Shown: piece by piece, positions 1 through 16,438 of the stretch
Layout of the letters: each line of letters begins with the position of its first letter
How positions within the stretch are numbered: position 1 is the first letter of the stretch
Virus record (IMG/VR): IMGVR_UViG_2585427793_000004
Location: 1 to 19,514 of that record
Reading direction: 5' to 3' (one strand)
DNA from: a virus
Lineage: Duplodnaviria; Heunggongvirae; Uroviricota; Caudoviricetes
Length of the DNA stretch: 19,514 nucleotides
Program-made: the position numbers and the translations under genes
Notes under the pieces: model-generated
What the model saw: the letters and a program-made list of their open reading frames with translations, nothing else
What the model was told of the DNA's origin: nothing
Databases searched by the model: none

Positions 1-357
1 ATCAGCGGCTTCCTGCAAAATCCTGATAGCTTTTTTAACGCCATGCTGAACGGCTGCATCGAACACAAACATCGCCACGCCATCAGGCCACTGGTCACAT
101 CCGGCAGGCAGCCAGTAATCGCGCCAGTAAATCTGCGCGACCTGTTCGCGGGTTAAATCCCTGATGCGGGTATCCGGTTTACCGTCGCCGCTGACATCGG
201 TTTTGCCGTCAATCACACCGTCGCGGCGGTCAGAAATGCCGTATTTGGTTTCACCGCCGCTGTCTGTGGGGTCATTGACATAGCCGCCTTCGATATCGGG
301 ACGCAGAATAAAATTCAGCGCATGTTCAAAGGCCGGGGAGAATTTTTGATTTTCCAT
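1..357 (-). CDS. GH108-type lysozyme / peptidoglycan hydrolase, N-terminal part (3' end outside window); probable endolysin of the Mu-like phage
   Basis: Minus-strand ATG at 357, open to the window edge (119 codons, no stop). Translation MENQKFSPAFEHALNFILRPDIEGGYVNDPTDSGGETKYGISDRR... carries the EGGYVNDP-x-D-x-GGETKYGI signature I recognise as the glycoside hydrolase family 108 N-terminal domain. Not in the supplied ORF track because it has no in-window stop. Confidence 0.6.
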   Translation of the reverse strand, partial: MENQKFSPAFEHALNFILRPDIEGGYVNDPTDSGGETKYGISDRRDGVIDGKTDVSGDGKPDTRIRDLTREQVAQIYWRDYWLPAGCDQWPDGVAMFVFDAAVQHGVKKAIRILQEAAD

Positions 358-369
358 AAAAGCACCTGT

Positions 370-396
370 GAAGCAGATTTAAACGTGGTCTGCTTC
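370..396 (-). promoter_or_regulatory. Perfect 8-bp inverted repeat upstream of the lysozyme gene
   Basis: GAAGCAGA-N11-TCTGCTTC, 13 bp upstream of the ATG at 357 and just downstream (minus-strand sense) of the terminator at 411-437. Function not determinable from sequence. Confidence 0.3.
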
Positions 397-410
397 ATGG
401 TGCCGGAGGC

Positions 411-437
411 ATAAAAAAAGCCGGATTTACCGGCTTC
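411..437 (-). terminator. Rho-independent terminator ending the early/middle transcript
   Basis: Minus-strand RNA reads AAGCCGG-UAAAU-CCGGCUU followed by a run of 7 U; lies ~25 nt 3' of the stop of CDS 459-956. Confidence 0.7.
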
Positions 438-458
438 ATTGAATATCAGGTTATTGAC

Positions 459-956
459 TCAGTTAACTTTACGGGCAGAACATGTAGTCTTCATTACTGA
501 ACGTTCAATTTTTATCTTCCAGCCATTTACTGTTTTTTCGACAGGATCATCTTCCGTCTGCTTTAAATTATCCACATACATAAAATTCAGCGGGGATGGA
601 GTATCATCGTCCCATGATGTCGGGCGAACATAATCAGGGACAACAAAAGGTTCAAAAACAGTTTCACATAAAGCAGACGTCATTTGAGCAAAGTCGTCGC
701 TATCGGGACGAACCGGTCCTGTAACATACTGCATTTTTATGTTGATTTCGTTATCTCGCACAGACGTCTTTAAATCCTGATATACACCTAAGTTAAATCC
801 TTTAAACTCAGCAATGGCAGCATCACCTTTACCGTACCAGTCGGTATAGTCAACGGATGTTTTTTTCTGAAAAACATCTTTGACTTTTTGCTGGAATGTA
901 TCCGCCGCTTGTACAGTAGTAACAGTTAGTAAAAGAATAAGGGGAAGATATTTCAT
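459..956 (-). CDS. Secreted (Sec signal peptide) hypothetical protein, 165 aa; candidate moron
   Basis: ATG at 956 with AAGGA RBS, ATGA overlap with the mor stop. N-terminus MKYLPLILLLTVTTVQA-AD is a typical signal peptide with AxA cleavage site. Region is visibly more AT-rich than neighbours, roughly 35-40 percent GC by eye. Confidence 0.7.
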   Translation of the reverse strand: MKYLPLILLLTVTTVQAADTFQQKVKDVFQKKTSVDYTDWYGKGDAAIAEFKGFNLGVYQDLKTSVRDNEINIKMQYVTGPVRPDSDDFAQMTSALCETVFEPFVVPDYVRPTSWDDDTPSPLNFMYVDNLKQTEDDPVEKTVNGWKIKIERSVMKTTCSARKVN

Positions 957-1354
957 TGTTCGTCCTTAAATAGTTGCATTTGATATTTTCCACGCTCCAG
1001 TCGACGCATTCTTTTGATGGCCTGATATACCGTTTTGTATGTCACTTTGTAACGCTGCACCAGCTCCGCTACGTTTTTCCCATCAAAATCACGCCAGATG
1101 CGCATGTCTCTGATAAGATTTTCCAGTATTTTCCCTTTCGGGACATATACCTGAATCCCACCGATATGATTGCAAATCGCCACTACCAGCTCAAGAGAGT
1201 GGGCAGGGTTAACTCCAAGCCTTATCAGCTCCTGTCGCAACAGAGCATTCAGCTCAGCCAGTAAAGATGGAAATCCCGACTTTTCCTGAACATCATCAAA
1301 ATATTCAAGGATACTGTCGTCCTGATAATCACCAAATAAATCCTGCTCTTTCAT
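953..1354 (-). CDS. mor: Mor/C-family transcriptional activator (Mu middle operon regulator-like)
   Basis: 133 aa; ATG at 1354 with GGGAGA RBS and ATGA overlap with the upstream gene. Sequence ...LFGDYQDDSILEYF...FPSLLAELNALLRQELIRLGVNPAHSLELVVAICNHIGGIQVYVP...TVYQAIKRMRR matches my recollection of Mu Mor. Position right after gemA matches Mu gene order. Confidence 0.8.
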   Translation of the reverse strand: MKEQDLFGDYQDDSILEYFDDVQEKSGFPSLLAELNALLRQELIRLGVNPAHSLELVVAICNHIGGIQVYVPKGKILENLIRDMRIWRDFDGKNVAELVQRYKVTYKTVYQAIKRMRRLERGKYQMQLFKDEQ

Positions 1355-1902
1355 AGAACTATTCTCCCGCTGTTTCTGGCGCGGGCATACGCACTGGTCA
1401 GTGCATCATATCCACGCAGTTCCCGCCCGGTTTCGCTCACAGGTAAAGGCACACCATGTCGGGCAAAAGCTTCCCGAATGCAGCGCATATGCCACTGTTT
1501 GAGCGTTTCGAGCACAATCTGCAACGATTCCCCATAACACCAGGTCAGCGTGGAAACCCCCTGACCACCATTACGTCTGGCCGTCAGGCGTTCAACGTAT
1601 TTGTCCAGCGCGGCGTCGCTGATATCGGAGACGAAACCATCAAGAAACATCTGCTGCCAGATTTTATAAATCTTCTCGCGCGGTGTGACATACCCCTTAA
1701 AGCGACGGCGGGGATGTTTTTTCTGCTTCTTAAAACCGCGCTCTTTCATGGCATTGAGCACCTGTTCCAGTTGTGTAACGGACAGCTCGCGGCAACTGGT
1801 CTTGCCCGTGCACTGCACCAGAAAGGCGCGGTAAGTGTCATCGTCGAGGTGCAACTCCCGGCGGGCAACATGAATTAATTTAATCAGGGATGTGCGGCTC
1901 AT
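1351..1902 (-). CDS. gemA: GemA-like protein (Mu gp16 / DUF1018 family)
   Basis: 183 aa; ATG at 1902 with GGGGGA RBS. N-terminus MSRTSLIKLIHVARRELHLDDDTYRAFLVQCTGKTSCRELS is the conserved GemA-type signature; sits immediately upstream of mor as in Mu. Confidence 0.7.
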   Translation of the reverse strand: MSRTSLIKLIHVARRELHLDDDTYRAFLVQCTGKTSCRELSVTQLEQVLNAMKERGFKKQKKHPRRRFKGYVTPREKIYKIWQQMFLDGFVSDISDAALDKYVERLTARRNGGQGVSTLTWCYGESLQIVLETLKQWHMRCIREAFARHGVPLPVSETGRELRGYDALTSAYARARNSGRIVL

Positions 1903-2215
1903 TATGTCCCCCGGATTTAAAAATTAATTCAGTGTTGAATAGCTCTTTACTCATTCGCTGTAGCACATCAAGGGCGGCAACTGCCGCCACTTTATCCTGG
2001 CTGGCAATGATTCCCCGCAACTCTTCGATAATCCATGCAGGACTTAATGATTCAGCAATCATCATGCGCTTTTCTGAAATTAAATTTTCTCTGGCCTGCT
2101 CAAAGTGCTGGTATACAACATTATCCAGAAAATAATTTACATCTTGTTCTGACATACCACTGGAAATTAAGGTTGCAGCCATTAAATCAGCATCAGTAAT
2201 CATCTGTATTTTCAT
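1880..2215 (-). CDS. Hypothetical early protein, 111 aa
   Basis: Track ORF 1880-2248 trimmed to the ATG at 2215, which has an AGAGG RBS (MKIQMITDADLMAATLISSG...). Same strand and tight packing with flanking early genes. Confidence 0.5.
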   Translation of the reverse strand: MKIQMITDADLMAATLISSGMSEQDVNYFLDNVVYQHFEQARENLISEKRMMIAESLSPAWIIEELRGIIASQDKVAAVAALDVLQRMSKELFNTELIFKSGGHNEPHIPD

Positions 2216-2390
2216 TTCGTAATACCTCTTCGCAATAAAAGATTTCACCGGGATAACGTTTTTGTATGCGCTCCATCACCTGCATACATGCCTGCTCTGT
2301 GGGCCAGATTTTTTCTGTTACCGGGATAGCATCACAGGCATCATTCCCGCAGGTGCCAACCAGCAGGACAAAGCCAATTGACTTAATCAT
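2193..2390 (-). CDS. Small Cys-rich hypothetical protein, 65 aa, with hydrophobic N-terminus
   Basis: Track ORF 2193-2486 trimmed to the ATG at 2390 (MIKSIGFVLLVGTCGND...), which overlaps the stop of the upstream gene in ATGA-like fashion. Six cysteines. The longer track start lies inside the upstream CDS. Confidence 0.4.
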   Translation of the reverse strand: MIKSIGFVLLVGTCGNDACDAIPVTEKIWPTEQACMQVMERIQKRYPGEIFYCEEVLRNENTDDY

Positions 2391-2922
2391 GCTCACTGGC
2401 TTCCTGTGTTGCCGCCGGAACCGGTGAATAATCAAGAATGAGATAGCGCATGACGTGGTCGGTGATATTCCAGCCACTGGAGCCACAAATAAAACGTCCC
2501 AGCCGGATATCGATATACGCCATCACAAAACGGGGCATTCCCTGTTTGCACATTTCATCGCCCACTTCTGCAACGATGTAAACCGACTCGCAGGTCAGTA
2601 CGCCTGTCGCAAATTCTTTTGCCAGTGCCGGAATGGCATTGCCTTCCAGCCAGGGCAAAGAGCGGCGGAACGCACACCATTGAGCATCATCAACAGCGGG
2701 GTGCTCCGTTGTGTTTCGTCTTACCGGCGGCGTCGGGCGAGGGCGCGGAACATCATAAAACCCGTTGCATTCTGTCAGCATTCCGGCATCAACCGCATCA
2801 CGCAGGAAATACACCATTGAAGAAGGTGGCATATTCATTTTTTCCGCCAGAACGCCACAGGTCAGACGTCCGTAAGCCCGTAATAATGTACTGACACCGT
2901 TCAGAACTTTTGCATCAACCAT
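2383..2922 (-). CDS. Hypothetical early protein, 179 aa, possible winged-helix N-terminus
   Basis: ATG at 2922 with AGGA RBS; Pro-rich linker PRPRPTPPVRR between two halves. No family recognised. Confidence 0.55.
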   Translation of the reverse strand: MVDAKVLNGVSTLLRAYGRLTCGVLAEKMNMPPSSMVYFLRDAVDAGMLTECNGFYDVPRPRPTPPVRRNTTEHPAVDDAQWCAFRRSLPWLEGNAIPALAKEFATGVLTCESVYIVAEVGDEMCKQGMPRFVMAYIDIRLGRFICGSSGWNITDHVMRYLILDYSPVPAATQEASEHD

Positions 2923-3020
2923 TTTTTATTCCTGAGTAATCTGTTTCAGGCGCGAGCAATCCCCTGACGCATCGCGCCATAATTAAAAGAAAGTGAATTA
3001 ATTAAATATTCGTGGTGGTA

Positions 3021-3545
3021 TTAAATACCGGCTTCCTGTTCAAACGGAATAATAGAAAAATCTTCAATGCCTGATTTAACTGTAATTCCGGCGACACCTG
3101 CGACTGCTTTCGGTTCCAGTAAAATCGCTTCCTTGTTGATTTCCTGTTTCGTGCGAATAAAGCGTTGCAGGCCAAGACGCTCCAGCGTTTCCATCACCGC
3201 ATCCACACCGCGAATACTTACCGATGGTGGGCGCTGACGCCATTGCACATCACCGGTAACGAGGTTAGCACTTTTCACTTTGCCGCCGTTCGTCAGCTCG
3301 TCACGGTTCGCTTCACACCATCCCTGAACGCCTTTTGAAAGGGTTTCAATACTGGTTTTAAGGGGTGCAATCTGTGAGGCGTATTTCTCCGTAATCTCAG
3401 CGATAGCGTCATTCATTTCCGTTTCAAGTCGTGCCGCTTCGCGTTGCAGGTCACCAATCCGGCGGATATCACATACCACGGCATCACGGGATTGCGGAAC
3501 ATAAGTCGCTGCGGCGTTCCTGATTCGTTTTGCTGACTTAGCCAT
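3021..3545 (-). CDS. gam: Gam-like host-nuclease inhibitor (Mu Gam, Ku-like DNA-end-binding protein)
   Basis: 174 aa; ATG at 3545 with AGGAG RBS. MAKSAKRIRNAAATYVPQSRDAVVCDIRRIGDLQREAARLETEMNDAIAEITEKYA...NGGKVKSANLVTGDVQWRQRPPSVSIRG...EPKAVAGVAGITVKSGIEDFSIIPFEQ agrees closely with my recollection of Mu Gam. Confidence 0.85.
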   Translation of the reverse strand: MAKSAKRIRNAAATYVPQSRDAVVCDIRRIGDLQREAARLETEMNDAIAEITEKYASQIAPLKTSIETLSKGVQGWCEANRDELTNGGKVKSANLVTGDVQWRQRPPSVSIRGVDAVMETLERLGLQRFIRTKQEINKEAILLEPKAVAGVAGITVKSGIEDFSIIPFEQEAGI

Positions 3546-3565
3546 ATAAATAAAGCTCCTGTTAA

Positions 3566-3853
3566 TTAATATTCGCTGTATACAATACTGGATACAGCAC
3601 GATTGCTTAATTCCATCTTTTTGGCTATCACATGAATAGCCAGCCCTTCTTTATAAAGTTCACGACACAAATATTTGTCGTGCTCACTGATTCGGTATGC
3701 ACACAACGATATTCCGTGCCTTCTGGCATGTGCCCTGAGGGCCGTTGTGGCAACGTTCAGTTTTTTCGCCATTTCTTCAACGGTCATTTTTCCGACACTG
3801 GCTTCGATAAATTCCCGGTCTTCGCGTGACCAGCGTTTACGATTACACATCAT
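3566..3853 (-). CDS. Small DNA-binding protein with two HTH-like segments
   Basis: Track ORF 3566-3865 begins with GTG; the ATG at 3853 (MMCNRKRWSREDREF...) is preferred. Segments MTVEEMAKKLNVATTALRAHARRHGI and LAIHVIAKKMELSNRAVSSIV look like helix-turn-helix units. Confidence 0.5.
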   Translation of the reverse strand: MMCNRKRWSREDREFIEASVGKMTVEEMAKKLNVATTALRAHARRHGISLCAYRISEHDKYLCRELYKEGLAIHVIAKKMELSNRAVSSIVYSEY

Positions 3854-3865
3854 TCCGGTCACCAC

Positions 3866-4285
3866 TCAGTACAACAGGGGTTCGCGCAGTGATGCCGGAA
3901 TATGCCGCAGCGATAACTGAACCGCTTTCAGGGCAAGGGAAGAATACGTCCCCTGCGTCCAGCCTTTCGCCATTTGCCGGTACTCGCGCCAGATGTTCTG
4001 CCACTGCTCCCGTGCGTCCGGGTCTGACGCGCTGATGTATTCTCGGTCCATGACGTATTCCCATAAATCCACATTGAAGGCATTGCCAAACGTAATGGCG
4101 CGGAATACCGCCTCCCCGCAATAACGGGCACAAATGCTGTAATGGTCAAATGCAATCAGGTAAGTCTTTTCGCCATACCCCTTAACTTCGCGCGCGCAAA
4201 TAAATTCGCGCAAGTCTCCACCATTGCTATTACGCTCTTTAATCCGAATTAATGCCTGGATTTCGTTTCTGATTCTGGCGTTCAT
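3866..4285 (-). CDS. Hypothetical early protein, 139 aa
   Basis: Track ORF 3866-4333 trimmed to the ATG at 4285 with AAGGA RBS (MNARIRNEIQALIRIKERNSNGGDLREF...). No family recognised. Confidence 0.5.
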   Translation of the reverse strand: MNARIRNEIQALIRIKERNSNGGDLREFICAREVKGYGEKTYLIAFDHYSICARYCGEAVFRAITFGNAFNVDLWEYVMDREYISASDPDAREQWQNIWREYRQMAKGWTQGTYSSLALKAVQLSLRHIPASLREPLLY

Positions 4286-4305
4286 TGTCAGCGTTCCTTT
4301 GTGAA

Positions 4306-4575
4306 TTAATGTGTTGCGGCATCCGGGTTGCACCGGAATAACTCGCCTTCAACTTCCAGCCCGCGTTCCCTGGCGGATTCCAGCAACGCCCGGGTCGCCT
4401 TCTCAATAATTTCAGACGCCATACTCTTGATAATGCCTGCCATCAGATCATGCGGCCCGACCTGTCCCTCCGGGGATTGCTCTTCCAGCCGCACATTCAT
4501 ATTGATATAAAAATGGTTATTTCTTTGCATCTCAGCACTTTCTGCGCAATTAAATTCGAAGATGACCTTTGCCAT
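4306..4575 (-). CDS. Hypothetical early protein, 89 aa
   Basis: Track ORF 4306-4629 trimmed to the ATG at 4575 with GAGGA RBS (MAKVIFEFNCAESAEMQRNNHFYI...). Confidence 0.5.
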   Translation of the reverse strand: MAKVIFEFNCAESAEMQRNNHFYINMNVRLEEQSPEGQVGPHDLMAGIIKSMASEIIEKATRALLESARERGLEVEGELFRCNPDAATH

Positions 4576-4607
4576 TTTGTTATTCCTCACAAATAAAAAG
4601 TTCACTA

Positions 4608-4835
4608 TTAACGCCAGATAATCTGGCAACCATTAAGACGGGCTGTCCATACAGAACGGGCTACCCCGGACTTATGCTCCATAATTCTGACCGCGTTTTT
4701 TACCAGCTCCACCGGTGGGTATGTGATTTCAAGAATCGGACGAGCCACGCCGAGATATGATTCATTTACATGACTCCCGCGCGCCTGTAACCAGTTCTGC
4801 GCATCCGTCGCCATTTTGATATTCCGTGACATCAT
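4608..4835 (-). CDS. Small early protein, 75 aa, in the position of Mu kil
   Basis: ATG at 4835 with AAGGAG RBS, 14 nt after the B stop ([20 protein letters not shown]...). Assignment is positional only: in Mu the gene immediately after B is kil. Confidence 0.5.
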
Positions 4836-4848
4836 GATTTCGCTCTCC

Positions 4849-5787
4849 TTACGTGCGCAGCAGAGTTGAAATATCAACGTCCAGGTCTAATTCACGGAAA
4901 GCCTGACGCAGATAATCTTCATTAACTCGTTCACCTTTGCCGTGGGCGGTCATGGCCGCAAGGCGCAGCGAGTGGTTCAGGATTCGAAGCGCACCTGGTT
5001 TTTGTGCAATCTGCTGTAATAATTCCCGCTCGTTTTCGCCGGTAATTTGCCAGGCATCCGCAATGGCTTTTACATCATCAATTTTGGTTTTATTAATTGC
5101 CGTCCGCTTTGCAATACGGGAAAACAGGCGGGCAAATTCAACCGTTCTGTTACCGCCGGTCATGTTTGAATAAACACGGTGATTCCCCATCAGAACAAGA
5201 CCAATACGGGCGGATTCCTGTAACAGGCGGAGTTCTTCCAGAACCTCAGCGCCAAGATGATCAGCTTCGTCGATAATGACCAGCCCCTGCGTACCTTCAA
5301 GGCGGCGTCGCAAAGCGCGGGAGAGTGGCCCCTTACGGCGCGGTGCGTCATTCATTCCCAGTTCATAAGCCAGTTCAGTCAGGCATTCCAGAACACTGGC
5401 ACAGGATGGGGTAATGGTGATCAACCAGACATTGTTATTGGTGCGCCGAAATTCGCGGGCCGCTTCAGTTTTTCCCACACCTGGATTACCGCAGATAACA
5501 GAAATACTTTCAGTCAGACTGGCAAAACGCATACTCGTCCAGATTTGGCGTGCTGTTCTGGTTTCCACAAAACGCGGGGGTTCTGGCAGCTCTGCGGCGC
5601 GGTGATAGTTTTCCAGCCAGCGTTCCAGCGTCTGCGCGACACGGTCATTGTCTCCGTTGTACTTGTTATTCACGAATGCGCTTAACGTTCCTGCGGCCAC
5701 GCCGGACTCGCGGGCAATTTGTGCATAAGTTGTTTTTTCACTTTCTACAAGCGTGCGCAGTCCTGCGCGAATATCGGAAATATTCAT
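4849..5787 (-). CDS. B: Transposition ATPase / target DNA activator B (MuB-like, AAA+)
   Basis: 312 aa, the length of Mu B; Walker A GNPGVGKT and Walker [11 protein letters not shown]; N-terminal HTH. Near-identical over long stretches to Mu B as I recall it ([15 protein letters not shown]..., ...[12 protein letters not shown]). Confidence 0.9.
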
Positions 5788-5825
5788 CTGAATAACCTCG
5801 TAATTAAATTTTATTTAAACGTTAA

Positions 5826-7907
5826 TTAAATGGCTTTTTTACGTCTGTTCTGTTCCAGAATATCCAGCGAATGATTCAGATATTCGTCGCGGTCACTCTC
5901 ATATTCATCATCCGGTTCATCAGCCAGTACTAACACGACTTTCTCCACTGGTCTGTAGACGTTGTTGAACAACCCGTTGCCTGTAACAGGAGCAGGCAGT
6001 GTTCGGGTATTCTCTGCCTCGGCCAGTCTGATTTTTTCCTCTCCCCGCTGACGCATCCCTTTGATGCGCTGCTGGCGCTGATGGTATTCTGCAGTGACCG
6101 GGAATGCCTGCTGTTTATTGCCATCCCAGACCGCCTCACAGATATAGGACCCGTCCATGCGGCGGATAATTACTTTTGTTGCATCATGAATATCGTAATT
6201 CACCAGCACCTTATTACCGTGTTCATATTCCAGATCAGTTGAATAATAAATGTTATTAAACAACCTGACTTCACAACGGTTGACTGTACGTTCAATCTGC
6301 GGCATAAACATTTCACGCAGTTCAAGGTCGGACAACCATTCGATTTCTGTCGCTTCTTTTTCCAGTTTGTAGCGTCGGAACTGCGCCGGGGTGTAATGTT
6401 CACCGTTTCCACGTAGTGGTAGCGAACTATGCGGACGGTTGTTGTACCATTCCACACCAGCTTCAATAGCAACAATAAGTTCATTCCATGACGGCAGGTT
6501 TTTTAAAGCCTGCCGTTGTTTTTCTGTCAGCTCCCGTCCTTTGTTTGCCGCATTTGTTGCAGACATCAGAGTCTTTGTCATACGACGAACCGTTCCACGG
6601 TCGGCACCGGTGCCATAATACGTGGCAAACTGACGTGATATACGCATAGCCAGAGTGCGGTTCAGACGCTCTATAATCCCTCGCCCTTGCGGGTTTTCAG
6701 GTATACCAAGACGGTGATCAATTCCAAGACGCGGTAAAACCCCCGTGATATCAGCATCAAACGTGTTGTTAGTTTCACCGCCGCCATTATCTGAATAATA
6801 GATGTACGGTTTTCCGTGATTTTTAATTCCGTGGCGTAACGCATCAGCAACAGCAACCACACTTTCAGAAAGTGCCAGACTCCAGCCCACAATAAAGCGG
6901 CAACTGCCGTCCATGATAAAGGTGACTTCTGGAGAAAATGGATTGCCGTGATCAGGATGCGCCACTTTCATCTTCATGCCGTGACCATCACCAATCCAGG
7001 CATAATTCACCGGCAAAGATAACCAGTCCCGACGCACGAAGCCTTCATACTGGCGGAACTCACTGCCAGTAATGCGTCCGCGTTGTTTCACAACAACCGG
7101 GAGTTTGTTCATTGCATAGCAAACCTGATCATACGACGGCAGTGCTGCACACATCGCAGGATTATCCTGATGCACTTCATACCATTCCGCAGCAAAATCA
7201 TCATAAGCCTCCTGCATTCCGCACCCGTTCGGACGACGGTAAAAACGAAGAAACTCAGGTAACCAGCGAATCTGGTCGGGTTTTATGGGTTGACGTTTAC
7301 CAGGTGCCAGCATGATCAAACGTTCAGCCGGAGTGGTAGCCTTTTTAAAATCAGCAATCCAGCGTTTCAGTGATATTTCACTAAGGGATCGCAATGAACC
7401 TTTTTTCGCATTCGCAGTTGCAACGGTTTCCACCAGGTGTGCCGGTAACTCACCGTTTTTAGCCTGTTTCACAAACTCACGGATGGCAGCAGCCTGGCTG
7501 ATTCCTGGTAGTTCACAAACGCGCAAAACTTCGCTGACAATCGCAATTCGGGCGTCCGCTGTTTCTTTTTGCGTGGCGGTTAACGTTCCGAGTTTCTGCT
7601 CAAACAGCGCAGGACATTTGCGGTAAACCGCAATTTTGCCGTCTTCACGTTTTTTTAAACGCGGAGATTCAGGTTCTTTTGCCTCAGTTGCTGGCTGATT
7701 CATTAACGCCTTAATCTGGCGAGCCTGTAACGCCTTACGCGCCACATCAGGCAAACAGTCGACATGGAACTCAAAAGCCTTTGTCCCTGCACGCTTACGC
7801 ATCATTCCTTCTGATTCGCCGCAATAACGGCGCAATGCTTCCCGAATTCCTTTAATTGTTTTTGGTAATCCTGGTACACCGACCAGCTCTTTGGCGAGAA
7901 CAAACAT
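5826..7907 (-). CDS. A: DDE transposase A (MuA-like)
   Basis: 693 aa, ATG at 7907, 3 nt after the ner stop. N-terminal LPGLPKT motif as in the MuA DNA-binding domain; C-terminal tail ...DEYESDRDEYLNHSLDILEQNRRKKAI matches the MuA C-terminus as I remember it. Sits between ner and B as in Mu. Confidence 0.9.
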   Translation of the reverse strand: MFVLAKELVGVPGLPKTIKGIREALRRYCGESEGMMRKRAGTKAFEFHVDCLPDVARKALQARQIKALMNQPATEAKEPESPRLKKREDGKIAVYRKCPALFEQKLGTLTATQKETADARIAIVSEVLRVCELPGISQAAAIREFVKQAKNGELPAHLVETVATANAKKGSLRSLSEISLKRWIADFKKATTPAERLIMLAPGKRQPIKPDQIRWLPEFLRFYRRPNGCGMQEAYDDFAAEWYEVHQDNPAMCAALPSYDQVCYAMNKLPVVVKQRGRITGSEFRQYEGFVRRDWLSLPVNYAWIGDGHGMKMKVAHPDHGNPFSPEVTFIMDGSCRFIVGWSLALSESVVAVADALRHGIKNHGKPYIYYSDNGGGETNNTFDADITGVLPRLGIDHRLGIPENPQGRGIIERLNRTLAMRISRQFATYYGTGADRGTVRRMTKTLMSATNAANKGRELTEKQRQALKNLPSWNELIVAIEAGVEWYNNRPHSSLPLRGNGEHYTPAQFRRYKLEKEATEIEWLSDLELREMFMPQIERTVNRCEVRLFNNIYYSTDLEYEHGNKVLVNYDIHDATKVIIRRMDGSYICEAVWDGNKQQAFPVTAEYHQRQQRIKGMRQRGEEKIRLAEAENTRTLPAPVTGNGLFNNVYRPVEKVVLVLADEPDDEYESDRDEYLNHSLDILEQNRRKKAI

Positions 7908-7910
7908 AAA

Positions 7911-8159
7911 TCAGGATACCTTCTGAATGTAGCTTTCTGTCTGATAGCGGCTGGGCCAGATAGTTTCCGGTGCAACCCCCAGCGCATCAGCAACAATCTG
8001 CTGATAAGGTTTGCACGGTGTGCGTAAAACACTCTTGAGGGAGTCTTTGCTGTAACCCGCCTGAATGGACAGTGCGCGAAATGACAGTCCCCGTTTGTGA
8101 ATCTCTGCCTTAATGATTTCAGGGTGCCAATCGGCACGCGGATCTTCTTTTCGAGTCAT
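7911..8159 (-). CDS. ner: Ner-like DNA-binding early regulator
   Basis: 82 aa; ...ADWHPEIIKAEIHKRGLSFRALSIQAGYS...ETIWPSRYQ resembles Mu Ner (shared ...IWPSRYQ motif). Divergent from the repressor gene, immediately upstream of A. Confidence 0.8.
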   Translation of the reverse strand: MTRKEDPRADWHPEIIKAEIHKRGLSFRALSIQAGYSKDSLKSVLRTPCKPYQQIVADALGVAPETIWPSRYQTESYIQKVS

Positions 8160-8310
8160 GATTCCACTATCCTAAAAAGTTATCCGTGCGGATAACCGCG
8201 CGGTTATCCACTCGGACAAAGAATAAGAACACAAAAAGAACTTGTCAAATGTTCTTTTGTGTTTTTTATGTGTCTGCACTTTTTGTCTTTTAATTCAATT
8301 GGATAAGCAA
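8160..8310. promoter_or_regulatory. Divergent early/repressor promoter-operator region
   Basis: 151-bp gap between the divergent ner and repressor genes. Three alternating GTTATCC half-sites at 8179-8209 (GTTATCCG-TG-CGGATAAC-CGCGCG-GTTATCC), plus an imperfect palindrome CACAAAAAGAAC-N9-GTTCTTTTGTG at 8230-8261. Confidence 0.6.
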
Positions 8311-8922
8311 ATGAAACGTGAGACTCAAAAAGAACACAATGGTTCTTTTGCTCCTGATTCAAAAGAACCTGTTATCAATAGAATTTTTAAACTAGTAGAT
8401 CGCTATCGTTCGAGAAATGAAGCTGCGAAAGCGTGGGGAATCAACATCAATACGTTACAGAACTATTACAAACGTAAAGACCTCTCTCCAGTACCAAGAA
8501 AAACTCTGTTAGAAAAGATAGCGCAGTGTGAAGGGGTCAGCCTTGAATGGCTTCAAACCGGAGAGGGAAAAGAACCAGAAATGAACATAAAAAGAACTCA
8601 AGACGGTTTAGTGCCGCCTCATTCAGATTTAGATGATAAAATCCTATCGCTGATCCGCTTTTTGTCTGATAGCGAGAAAGAAGCGTTATTCCAGGTGCTT
8701 GCTCGCAAAGGGATAGAAACACTACTTTTTCTCCTTGACGAAGATAATATTCGCTTACTACAAATGGATCGCGTAGTGAAAGAGAAAATCCTGGGAATCC
8801 AGCCCAGAACGCCCGAGGAGCAGGCTTTTGCAGATAACGAGGCGAGAGAGTGTGATACCACTCATCCTTTACGCCATGAACAGTCCAAGAGCCTGACAAC
8901 TAAAAAGCAGCAGGCCCGCTGA
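8311..8922 (+). CDS. Phage repressor with CI-type helix-turn-helix
   Basis: Track ORF 8242-8922 starts at a TTG; first ATG is 8311 (MKRETQKEHNG..., 203 aa). NEAAKAWGININTLQNYYKRKDL...EGVSLEWLQTGEG resembles the phage CI-repressor HTH. Only convincing + strand gene in the window, divergent from ner as the Mu repressor is. Confidence 0.7.
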   Translation: MKRETQKEHNGSFAPDSKEPVINRIFKLVDRYRSRNEAAKAWGININTLQNYYKRKDLSPVPRKTLLEKIAQCEGVSLEWLQTGEGKEPEMNIKRTQDGLVPPHSDLDDKILSLIRFLSDSEKEALFQVLARKGIETLLFLLDEDNIRLLQMDRVVKEKILGIQPRTPEEQAFADNEARECDTTHPLRHEQSKSLTTKKQQAR

Positions 8923-9089
8923 TAGTAGTTTGCCTATTTCATTAGGCTGTTTTCGATGTTGGTGTAGAACTATGTCAACGCTGTAGCGGCCTGCTGATAC
9001 TCATTGCGGTAGATGTATGACTAAAACGAAGAAAAGATTTACTGCGAGCGAGGGAGTTTAAAAACCATCGAACAGTATTTGAAGGTTTT

Positions 9090-9249
9090 TTGACGTAGTA
9101 TCAAAAGTTTTACCCAAACTGGCATTTTCCTTTGATGGTATCAAAAAAGCGGTAACACGAAATCAGCCTAACAACACAACCTAACTCGTTGTTTTATCCC
9201 GCCAAATCCCGTTTATTCTAATGTTCTCCCGGTTTTCTCTCTGGTATCA
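9090..9249 (-). repeat. Mu-type left end (attL-like) with three direct copies of a transposase-binding-like repeat
   Basis: On the element strand the motif TTTGATAC(C/T)A-N5-8-AAAA occurs three times (+ strand GTATCAAA at 9099-9106, 9143-9150, 9245-9252), spaced like Mu L1/L2/L3. Element-strand sequence from 9249 inward, TGATACCAGAGAGAAAACCGGGAGAACATTAGAATAAACGGGATTTGGCGGGAT, resembles the Mu left end as I recall it (...GAAAAAAACCGGGAGGACATTGGATTATTCGGGATCTGATGGGAT...). Exact terminus uncertain by about 10 bp. Confidence 0.55.
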
Positions 9250-9627
9250 AATAAACTCCTTCTCAATAAGCAGGGTGCCACCGGCATAAACAATCTCGCC
9301 CCCCTGCGGATCCGGCATCCATCCAAGCAGGGCTTTCCAGAGTTCTCTCCGGACATCATGAACGGCGTCATAGGCTGCCCACTGCCCTTTTTCATCACGC
9401 TCATTGCTGAGCACAACAATCACGGAGAAGCCTTCTGTCAAATCCTGCCAGTAATCGGTCTGTGATTTTTGTTCCCCCGGTGCATCGTCAGAGGGAACCA
9501 CATAGGCAGCAGGCAGTCGCAGTTTTCCGGCATCAGGGATCGCCTTAAACTGCGCCGCGCCACCAACACGATCCTCAAAACGCGGGCATCGCTCACGCAA
9601 CGCCGCAATTATCGTTGTCAGTTTCAT
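9247..9627 (-). CDS. Phage neck / tail-terminator-like hypothetical protein, 126 aa, possibly 3'-truncated by the Mu-like insertion
   Basis: ATG at 9627 overlapping the stop of the upstream gene. Its TGA stop (9247-9249) falls inside the first bases of the putative Mu-like end, so the native C-terminus may be replaced. Family assignment is a guess from position after a gp10-like gene. Confidence 0.55.
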   Translation of the reverse strand: MKLTTIIAALRERCPRFEDRVGGAAQFKAIPDAGKLRLPAAYVVPSDDAPGEQKSQTDYWQDLTEGFSVIVVLSNERDEKGQWAAYDAVHDVRRELWKALLGWMPDPQGGEIVYAGGTLLIEKEFI

Positions 9628-14198: not shown

Positions 14199-15956
14199 TT
14201 AAAGCGAGCGAATACCAACGCTGACCAGATGTTCAGACAGATCCGGCTCCGGTTCACCGCCATTGACCAGCATCCGGCTCATTGCTGTAAACATCGCAAC
14301 AGGGCCGTCGATTTTGGCTTCCGGCGTGGATTTATTCGGGAAGATATTGTCGTTTTTGTCCGGTTTTACCGTAACGTTAGACATCATCCAGTTCATGACC
14401 GGATGATTGCTGTGGTGGAAACGCCCGGCATAGACCAGTGATTCCGTTTCCTTCATGGCCTCTGACAGATTGCGGACCGTCTGCGGAACTTCCACCAGCG
14501 GTATACCTTCTTCAGTCAGCGCCAGACTGAACTGCATTGCGCTCCACGGGTCAAATCCCAGTTCCCTCAGGTTTTCACCGCCAATCCATTCCAGTAGGTC
14601 ACTTTTGATCTGAGCATGATCGATAACATCACCATCCGTCAGGATGAGCTTACCCATCTCCGCCCACTTCCGGTAAAGTTCTGCCTGCTGCCGTGAGCAT
14701 CGTTCCAGCCGTCCTTCCGGAAGCCAGAATTTAAAATCGGCATGAACATGCCCGTTATCCGTTCGCCAGAGTTTTGCCGCCGCACAGATATCAATCTTAT
14801 GAGCAAGGTCGACGCCGACCCACATGGGATATGTTTTCAGCTCATGCTGTGGAGCAATGTATTCGCACTTCTCCCACTTAATCATGTCCATCCAGGCAGA
14901 CTCTGCTGTTACCCACACATTCATGTGTTTGGTAAAAAAATTCACCCGCGCAGAGACCTGTTCTTTCGCTTTTTTCGCCAGGCGACGCAGATCATCCCAG
15001 CGTTTACAGATGCCCAGGCCGGGATTCGCTTTCTGCCAGACCGTTTCATCAAACGGATCATCTCCCTCATCGAGGGTGTAAATAATCGCAAAGTAGGAGT
15101 CGTCTTTTACCGCGCCCTCCACGTCGCTGTTATAGCCTCGCAATACCTTGATGGCGTAATCGCGTTGCTCGTAACAAATCCCTTCCTTGTTAAAGCCAGC
15201 CGTGGTGATACCAAATAACAGGGACTGCAGACGGGCACCGGTTGCCGTTTCCAGAACGTCCCACACGTCGCGGGTTTTATGTGCATGCAGCTCATCAATA
15301 ATGGCGCAGTGGATGTTCAGACCATCCAGGTTGTTTGCATCCGAGGAAAGCGGTTCAAATTTTGATGCGCTCTGCTCCTGGTAAATCGCCAGCTTGTTGA
15401 AATCAAACAACCGCCCGAGTGTCGATCGGGCTTTTCTGACCATATTTTTGGCGTCTTCAAACACGATTCTGGCCTGGTCACGCGTGGTTGCGGCTGAATA
15501 CACCTCAGCCCCGCCTTCACCATCTGCCCCCGTCATATACAGACCGATACCTGATGACAGGGTTGATTTTGCGTTTTTACGGGCGACTTCGTTGTACGCT
15601 GTCCGGAAACGGCGCACCATCACCGGGCGTCCGCTGCCATCGCTGCGCATGACAACTTCCCCGGTCTCTTCATTCACCAGCGGAATGACAAAACCAAAAA
15701 TATTAATGAGGATAAAAACATGCCAGTCCATCAGTTCAATGGGCTGACCTGCCAGCGCCCCTTTTACATGGGGCACAAATTTGTAGAAATTCAGGATGTG
15801 CTGCGCACGGGGTTCACTGAAATAAATCCCCCGCTCTTCGCCGTACTTCAGATCATCAAGAAAACGCTGGCAGGCCAGACGGACAAATTCACCAGCGACA
15901 ATTTCTCCTGCAACAACACGTTCGGCGTAGCGGATCCCGTCAGCCACTTTTGCCAT
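14199..15956 (-). CDS. Terminase large subunit
   Basis: 585 aa; ATG at 15956, ATGA overlap with the small-subunit stop. Size and placement between small terminase and portal. Confidence 0.9.
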
Positions 15957-16438
15957 CAGTCTCTCGCTTTTAAAAGTTCTGCCAGCGGATCAACATCATC
16001 CGGTCCGGCGATATTTACTTTCGCCCGGCTTGCCGGTGACATACCAAATTCTGCAAGCATCGCCCGGATCCGCTTCCAGGCATCCGCTTTCATCGCAGCA
16101 GCCGGGTGTGCCTTAATCAGCACATCACCGTTCTGCGTTTCCGTGCGGTAGGTATAACCCTCAACATCGAGTGTTTCGCAGTGATGCCGGTATTCGGTGT
16201 AGGCTTCCACCAGCAACTCGAGTGCACGCGCATCAAGCTGAGAAATGATCCCTTCCGCATTCAGCTCTTCCGCCATTCGCCTGAACCAGTACTTTCCCTG
16301 CGCCCCTAAATGCTGCGGAATTTTAGGGAGACCTTTTTCGTCCTTTTTAGCGGTTTTTTTGGCGTCTTTAACGGGACGCTTTGAGGGATTGCCTCGTATC
16401 AAATGCAGGCGTGGCGGGGGTTTCGGGGGGCCTGACAT
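15956..16438 (-). CDS. Terminase small subunit (P27-family-like)
   Basis: 160 aa; basic, Lys/Pro-rich N-terminus (MSGPPKPPPRLHLIRGNPSKRPVKDAKK) then a helical domain; directly upstream of the large subunit. Confidence 0.75.
   Translation of the reverse strand: MSGPPKPPPRLHLIRGNPSKRPVKDAKKTAKKDEKGLPKIPQHLGAQGKYWFRRMAEELNAEGIISQLDARALELLVEAYTEYRHHCETLDVEGYTYRTETQNGDVLIKAHPAAAMKADAWKRIRAMLAEFGMSPASRAKVNIAGPDDVDPLAELLKARD

Follow-up and report, generated by a model that had tools for sequence, protein, structure and literature searches.

The window, by which we mean the whole 19,514-nucleotide stretch of DNA that was analysed, holds one prophage nested in another. A Mu-like prophage, read on the minus strand, contributes its left ~9.3 kb at positions 1-9268; from 9269 on, the sequence matches phage phiP27 and many E. 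coli prophages at 99% identity. The genes relevant here, and the features that mark the boundary between the two prophages, are:

4849-5787, minus strand: gene B, encoding a MuB-like AAA+ target-DNA activator (89% identical to MuB)
5826-7907, minus strand: transposase gene A (693 aa), assigned from predicted domains, homologues and an AF2 model
7911-8159, minus strand: ner-like early regulator (HTH_35)
8242-8922, plus strand: ORF at the repressor position, with an uncertain start codon and a weak CI-type helix-turn-helix match; not Mu c-like
9267-9268, minus strand: left terminus, 5'-TA on the element strand, with the junction between 9268 and 9269; located from the phiP27 match and from relatives
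9269-9272, no strand: AGCA, putative left copy of a 4-bp target duplication, within the phiP27-like tail-terminator gene; proposed from the 4-bp duplications of relatives
9247-9627, minus strand: phiP27 L43-like tail-terminator gene of the host prophage, truncated (126 aa vs 187), given as context from outside the element

The phiP27-like match starts inside the tail-terminator gene L43. Where intact phiP27 reads GATCC-AGCAGGGTGCC, the window at the same place reads CTCAATA-AGCAGGGTGCC, and because phiP27 sequence switches to element sequence at this point we placed the end of the prophage at 9268. The truncated L43-like ORF crosses the 9268/9269 junction, and its stop codon is a TGA inside the outermost of the repeats described below. 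The first-pass annotation took the interval 9090-9249 as the left end, which stops short of this terminus. A true terminus lying elsewhere would have spoken against its reading; the mapped position fits that reading, as it sits 17 nt outside the outermost motif copy, the distance expected of an L1 site. Six E. coli prophages and the Yersinia phage vB_YpM_5 begin TAT, each at a different insertion site.

The sequence AGCAGGG (window 9269-9275) is found just outside the left terminus both in the window and in Yersinia phage vB_YpM_Tongde (MT591577), in the unrelated targets phiP27 L43 and IS100 istA. A terminus at the CA at 9271-9272, within this shared sequence, was rejected because intact phiP27 and intact IS100 both contain AGCAGGG where the insertion took place and six other insertions start TAT. 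Either these 7 nt coincide by chance (about 6e-5) or the element has a target preference; no AGCAGGG-type flank consensus was seen in the other insertions examined. The predicted right junction of the window's own element was searched for as GGTTCAGATCCAGCA joined to TAAAGCGCGC (also written ...GATCCAGCA joined to TAAAGCGCGC...). Genome contigs gave 72 matches, all apparently due to chance: the three Enterobacterales matches inspected lay in an unrelated conserved gene, and the rest came from unrelated taxa. Metagenome contigs gave 0 matches, and no complete E. coli genome carries an insertion at the window's site.

Close to the terminus lies a set of short direct repeats. The 8-mer GTATCAAA on the plus strand, which reads TTTGATAC on the element (minus) strand, occurs in three exact copies in the Mu-like part of the window, here named L1 to L3 from the terminus inwards:

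9244-9251, minus strand: L1 core TTTGATAC, element nt 18-25, a motif match
about 9242-9257, minus strand: extended conserved L1 site, AAAWYW-TTTGATAC-YR, from a multi-lineage comparison of sites
9196-9236, minus strand: Mu-like island of 41 nt, CCGGGAG...CGGGAT...GGGAT, between L1 and L2 and 80% identical to Mu nt 27-67
9138-9145, minus strand: L2 core, element nt 124-131, 106 bp from L1
9098-9105, minus strand: L3 core, element nt 164-171, 40 bp from L2

These three copies fall within 154 bp, compared with 0.52 +/- 0.70 copies expected in the whole window from dinucleotide-preserving shuffles of its sequence (n=200), and the total of four copies in the window was reached in 0/200 shuffles. 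The fourth exact GTATCAAA stands alone in the head/terminase region of the phiP27-like DNA (16396-16403) and is compatible with chance. No copies with one mismatch were seen near the element end. The first-pass annotation had described three copies of TTTGATACYA, each followed by an A-run; this consensus fits all three on the element strand, with an A-rich run within 12 nt after each, but the coordinates it gave were off by 1, 5 and 1 nt. Its observation of Mu-like spacing holds, although the spacings are 106 and 40 bp rather than ~100 and ~42 bp.

Alignment with the left end of Mu, which the first-pass annotation had proposed as a check, revealed the same three-site layout, L1-106-L2-40-L3 as against 105 and 40 bp in Mu. 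The window holds the left end only, and the right-end figures below come from relatives. Motif starts, in nt from the terminus, are:

Left end: 18, 124 and 164 in the window; the CGAAA cores of Mu at 22, 127 and 167
Right end: 18, 40 and 75 in relatives, all direct; in Mu 22, 44 and an inverted R3 at about 57

CGAAA is absent from the L1, L2 and L3 positions, and TTTGATAC stands there instead, so that the repeat does differ from the Mu site, as had been noticed from the sequence at first sight. The new 8-mer falls in the inner half of the would-be 22-bp sites. L1 and R1 are equidistant from their termini (nt 18), which were mapped independently from multiple insertion sites, and R1 and R2 are 22 bp apart, as are adjacent Mu sites. 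All right-end copies are direct, and the inverted R3 of phages Mu and D108 was not found.

The first-pass annotation had also proposed looking for inverted copies of the repeat at the right end, and the element's nearest relatives (among them Tongde, A21 and STEC388) have three there. Three inward-facing copies per end were found in A21, STEC388, O111 12A, Tongde, vB_YpM_5, Kp4866-3 and Mu_JNE122137. In complete relatives (33-37 kb) the 8-mer occurs three times per end and always faces inwards, against an expectation of 0.44 per strand, with 2-3 scattered copies elsewhere in whole prophages. Some TTTGATAC copies in the interior of relatives, such as the one at nt 15643 in A21 and another towards the 3' end of A in both A21 and STEC388, have no conserved counterpart in the window and are compatible with chance. 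The motif starts at nt 18 of both the left and right ends in all relatives examined. The L2 core is found at nt 113-124 in four lineages and at nt 88-89 in the Klebsiella lineage, the L1-L2 spacer having diverged, and the L3 core is at nt 164-165 in the E. coli, Yersinia and Sp18-like lineages. Site positions are kept where the transposases are only 57-76% identical and the spacers have diverged.

Comparison of 27 distinct sites, from elements whose transposases are 57-98% identical, gave the common form AAAWYW-TTTGATAC-YR, with variable flanks and spacers. Because a regular expression for the core was used to gather the sites, the core's invariance is partly built in; every expected position nevertheless had a match. 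The extended site at L1 and R1 covers approximately nt 12-27, within the stretch occupied by L1 and R1 of Mu. Pseudomonas phage VW-6B, with a 48% identical transposase, has three similarly placed inward-facing repeats at its right end, which read TTYTGGAC and not TTTGATAC. The VW-6B left end and the SuMu record were uninformative, as these records start elsewhere than at the termini. Two further features of the ends were observed. In the right ends of A21 and Tongde, the two arms of a 9-bp inverted repeat, CCGTTTTGG ... CCAAAACGG, lie on either side of R2, the loop being 19 nt long. A Mu-like half-site, ACGAAAAA, immediately precedes TTTGATAC at R3 of A21 and, in O111-type prophages, at L3 (ACGAAAAATTATTTGATAC); it may be left over from Mu-type sites or may belong to an extended site.

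Relatives of the element allowed the termini and the target duplication to be determined. Window positions 8900-9275 are 99.5% identical to Tongde; A21 (in E. coli, between pyrF and yciH) and STEC388 are complete relatives, and prophages of O111:H2 12A, FDAARGOS_943, JCKP02 and RM8082 are more distant ones. The flanks differ with each insertion, and the shared sequence opens with TAT(T/A/G) at its left side and with TAAAGCGCGC at its right. Since shared sequence starts at TA across different insertion flanks, the E. coli and Yersinia members have TA...TA ends; this was seen in A21, STEC388, O111, FDAARGOS_943, JCKP02, RM8082 and vB_YpM_5, and the left end in the window is also TA. In the Klebsiella and Sp18-like lineages the left end is TG, and right-end records start at TA. 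The 5'-TG...CA-3' termini and the 5-bp duplication that characterise phages Mu and D108 were not found in this lineage. The target duplications of the prophages examined are:

A21: TACT
O111 12A: CGCG
FDAARGOS_943: AACA
JCKP02: CTTA
RM8082: TTCG
STEC388: CGCA, with an ambiguous fifth base (4 or 5 bp)

The duplication is exactly 4 bp in five of these six prophage pairs, and 4 or 5 bp in STEC388. For an Sp18-like relative, LC727895, the depositors independently annotated the 4-bp repeat AGAG as a "duplication due to insertion". Duplications of 4 bp are thus seen in the E. coli and Sp18-like prophages examined. A 5-bp duplication with one mismatch was rejected: in every case the fifth base is a T or A belonging to the element, and in-silico removal of the element with one 4-bp copy perfectly restores yciH and mscM (ungapped, 240/240, as in thousands of E. 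coli genomes). For comparison, the duplication is 5 bp in Mu and 6 bp in B3 (PMC8705779). In the circular vB_YpM_5 record, 78 bp of foreign DNA separate ...GCGCGCTTTA from TATGAAGAGG..., as expected of Mu-type packaging of host DNA. The records of Tongde, vB_YpM_5 and vB_YpM_6 describe Yersinia phages and give Y. pestis as the host, and relatives of the transposase were found in E. coli, Salmonella, Serratia, Klebsiella, Citrobacter and Yersinia.

The first-pass annotation had pointed to a divergent N-terminus of the transposase. This region is indeed divergent, but so is the transposase as a whole, which is 23% identical to MuA over its full length and belongs to another Pfam core family; only the last 29 residues are almost identical to those of MuA. 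The Tongde transposase is 98.4% identical to A; the Sp18-like one, a member of the same clade, is 57% identical. Against Pfam, A gave a weak match to HTH_Tnp_Mu_1, the I-alpha-type N-terminal domain, and a match to Mu-transpos_C, with rve and rve_3 below the Pfam cut-offs. No match was obtained in A to DDE_2 (PF02914) or to the I-gamma domain HTH_Tnp_Mu_2 (PF09039), whereas MuA itself matched DDE_2 at 2e-136 in the same run. Sequence comparison with solved structures recovered only the MuA I-alpha domain and retroviral integrase cores.

An AF2 model of A, built on an alignment of 105 diverse homologues, had a mean pLDDT of 88. The predicted layout comprises a winged helix (residues 1-70), two helical domains (91-285), a DDE core, a beta-barrel, a long helix and a MuA-like tail. 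The best PDB matches of the model in Foldseek were the MuA chains 4fcy_A and 4fcy_B (E 1e-16, ~550 columns, 16% identity), followed by TnsB. A predicted DDE triad, D307, D373 and E413, is invariant in the 105 homologues. The model and the triad place A among the DDE transposases of the MuA/TnsB superfamily, and the Pfam results place it outside the narrow MuA family marked by DDE_2 together with HTH_Tnp_Mu_2. The ORF at the repressor position, the equivalent of which is annotated as a 585-bp CDS in A21 and Tongde, has no Mu c or MuA I-alpha-type domain; the transposase keeps an I-alpha-like N-terminal domain. In Mu, the two proteins have a DNA-binding domain and operator/enhancer sites in common; because the repressor-position ORF lacks a domain of this type, that scheme may not hold here.

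Comparison with Mu DNA showed where the resemblance stops and starts. Within the first 4.7 kb of the element, only nt 33-73 (80% identical) and nt 3357 onward (88%) are alike, and nt 3357-4661 aligns with Mu 3233-4539. The junction of this mosaic lies on the minus strand at window position 5912: leftward of it the DNA is 88% Mu-like (the last 29 codons of A, B and beyond), and rightward of it the DNA is not, bar the island between L1 and L2. As the 29-codon tail and B are Mu-like and the rest of A is 23% identical, the recombination joint falls inside A, upstream of the tail that interacts with MuB and ClpX. The island is the CCGGGAG...CGGGAT stretch that the first-pass annotation had recognised as Mu-like; it corresponds to element nt 33-73 and Mu nt 27-67, and nothing else in the element's first 3.3 kb resembles Mu DNA. 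It is present in the E. coli, Yersinia and Klebsiella lineages and absent from the Sp18-like one. Its position is what we take to be that of the Mu packaging signal, making it a candidate pac signal, and it may be matched to the Mu-like terminase.

The right end is similarly composite. In Tongde and A21, identity to Mu is 97-98% from nt 98, and the terminal 97 nt, containing R1-R3, replace the terminal 119 nt of Mu; the last 17 nt resemble those of Mu (TAAAGCGCGCAAAATCA vs TGAAGCGGCGCACGAAAAA). Judged by these comparisons, the element is a recombinant that combines a Mu backbone (the last 29 codons of A, B onward, and mom) with a foreign left module (attL, repressor, ner and A residues 1-664) and a foreign 97-bp attR. 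Both the transposase and the end sites are foreign while the MuB-interacting tail is that of Mu, and we infer that the transposase and its end sites moved together. On balance we favour the view that this is a natural hybrid, in which MuA has been replaced by a distant MuA/TnsB transposase with its own six TTTGATAC sites, TA cleavage and 4-bp stagger, and in which compatibility with MuB and ClpX would be kept solely by the last 29 residues of MuA.

The three TTTGATAC copies in the window are very probably the core binding sites L1-L3 of attL, bound by the prophage's own A transposase. The distinct end-recognition specificity suggested by the first-pass annotation is supported by the layout of the copies, their mirrored counterparts in relatives and the divergence of the transposase; each computational check that the annotation had put forward favoured its reading. 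That A is the protein that binds, and which of its domains would do so, is proposed here, as is the chemistry, by analogy with MuA and TnsB. One protomer of A would bind each site through the two helical domains that precede the DDE core. The left end would be paired with three matching sites at the right end, each end would be cut just 3' of its terminal A, 17 nt beyond L1 or R1, and the ends would be joined to target DNA with a 4-bp stagger.

We weighed this reading against other proteins that might recognise the repeats. A host architectural protein such as IHF might bind them and bend the ends, with the transposase reading other sequences. The IHF consensus has the core WATCAA, several transposons have IHF sites in their ends, and GTATCAAA contains TATCAA, which matches this core. 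However, the three copies in the window lack the downstream TTR of the consensus, and the conserved positions exceed WATCAA, with an invariant G and C. The arrangement is also that of transposase sites: there are three copies per end, the number of transposase sites in Mu, the first copy is equidistant from both termini, and R1 and R2 are separated by 22 bp like adjacent MuA sites. In VW-6B the right-end repeats (TTYTGGAC) are not IHF-like, and the motif thus changes with the transposase lineage. Binding of IHF is consequently an improbable explanation of the repeats, though a host factor may still contribute. Binding by the prophage repressor or Ner, which would silence the ends or terminate the repressor transcript, is very improbable. 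The repeats do lie just downstream of the repressor-position ORF (which ends at 8922) and in the same exchanged module, but the repressor-ner intergenic region, where an operator would be expected, has no copy, the right-end copies are beyond mom and far from the early promoters, and the motif is the same in lineages with different repressor-region sequences.

Packaging of Mu starts from the left end, and terminase small subunits often bind repeats, so the motif might be recognised by the packaging machinery as a pac site. The first packaging cut in Mu is made at a fixed distance from the phage end (PMC5557969). This explanation fails at the right end, which carries three copies of the motif as well and where pac is not expected. 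The head and terminase genes of A21 and STEC388 are annotated as Mu-like. The repeats are not Mu-like whereas the 41-nt island is, and the island is the better candidate for pac. We regard a role in packaging as most unlikely. The region is non-coding and A/T-rich, in which short repeats might arise by chance, but the copy number in the shuffles described above and the fact that four or five lineages keep the positions and mirror them at the opposite end exclude chance for practical purposes. Recognition of the repeats by the A transposase is the reading that best fits the data.

Among known systems, the closest to these ends are attL and attR of Mu, which likewise have three sites per end, a left spacing of ~105 and then 40 bp, R1 and R2 at 22 bp, and cores at approximately nt 18-27; Mu also shares the homologous L1-L2 island, the B partner and the C-terminal tail of A. 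It differs in its core, RCGAAA(A), its inverted R3 at about nt 57, its TG...CA ends, its 5-bp duplication and its DDE_2 core, where this lineage has TTTGATAC, a direct R3 at nt 75, TA...TA ends, 4 bp and an rve-type core. The ends bound by TnsB in Tn7 and CAST elements are similar in having several directly oriented sites, dispersed on the left and close-packed on the right, and TnsB was the second-best structural match of A; these elements are transposons and not phages, with a 5-bp duplication and different partner proteins. Tongde, which is classified as a Muvirus, has the same three right-end copies but is flanked by IS100 and glyS host DNA in the Yersinia record. The Sp18-like Mu_JNE122137 (LC727895) has TTTGATAC at 18, 113 and 165 on the left and at 18, 40 and 75 on the right, a right-end TA and a 4-bp duplication, and differs in its left-end TG and in an L1-L2 spacer without the Mu-like island. 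Such Mu-like prophages of STEC have been likened to Sp18 of O157 Sakai in a study that contains no discussion of ends, binding sites or duplication length (PMC10132054).

TA-TA ends have been described in Leptospira only, in a paper that asks whether they are present in other bacteria (Olo Ndela, Enault and Toussaint 2021, PMC8705779). The Leptospira prophages resemble the present lineage in having TA at both ends and a MuA-like predicted transposase fold. They differ in a 6-bp duplication, as against 4 bp here, in having no enhancer-binding domain, and in their unrelated sequence and host (PMC8705779). We found no published description of the ends of Tongde, SfMu or the vB_YpM phages, or of Mu-like phages with 4-bp duplications or inserted in Stx phages. 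No published account of the ends described here was found, and one GenBank record (LC727895) annotates the 4-bp repeat.

These comparisons indicate a Mu-type end architecture with another recognition core, TA termini and a 4-bp duplication, set in a Mu backbone. Mu is the reference system for DDE transposition, and it is usual to regard the end sites, the CA terminus and the 5-bp stagger as invariant in "Mu-like" phages. The lineage described here, which is common in the Enterobacterales, keeps the Mu architecture and B and changes the recognition sequence, the terminal dinucleotide and the length of the duplication. It therefore lends itself to comparisons aimed at the transposase residues that recognise the end sites, and to the question of how the stagger and the requirement for CA are determined; it could also test whether the C-terminal tail of MuA suffices for coupling to MuB. 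For annotation, searches for TG...CA ends with 5-bp repeats would misplace the boundaries of these prophages. If our interpretation is correct, TA-TA transposable phages exist outside Leptospira, answering a question posed in PMC8705779, and end specificity, cleavage dinucleotide and stagger would travel as one exchangeable cassette, with the MuB interface a portable C-terminal peptide.
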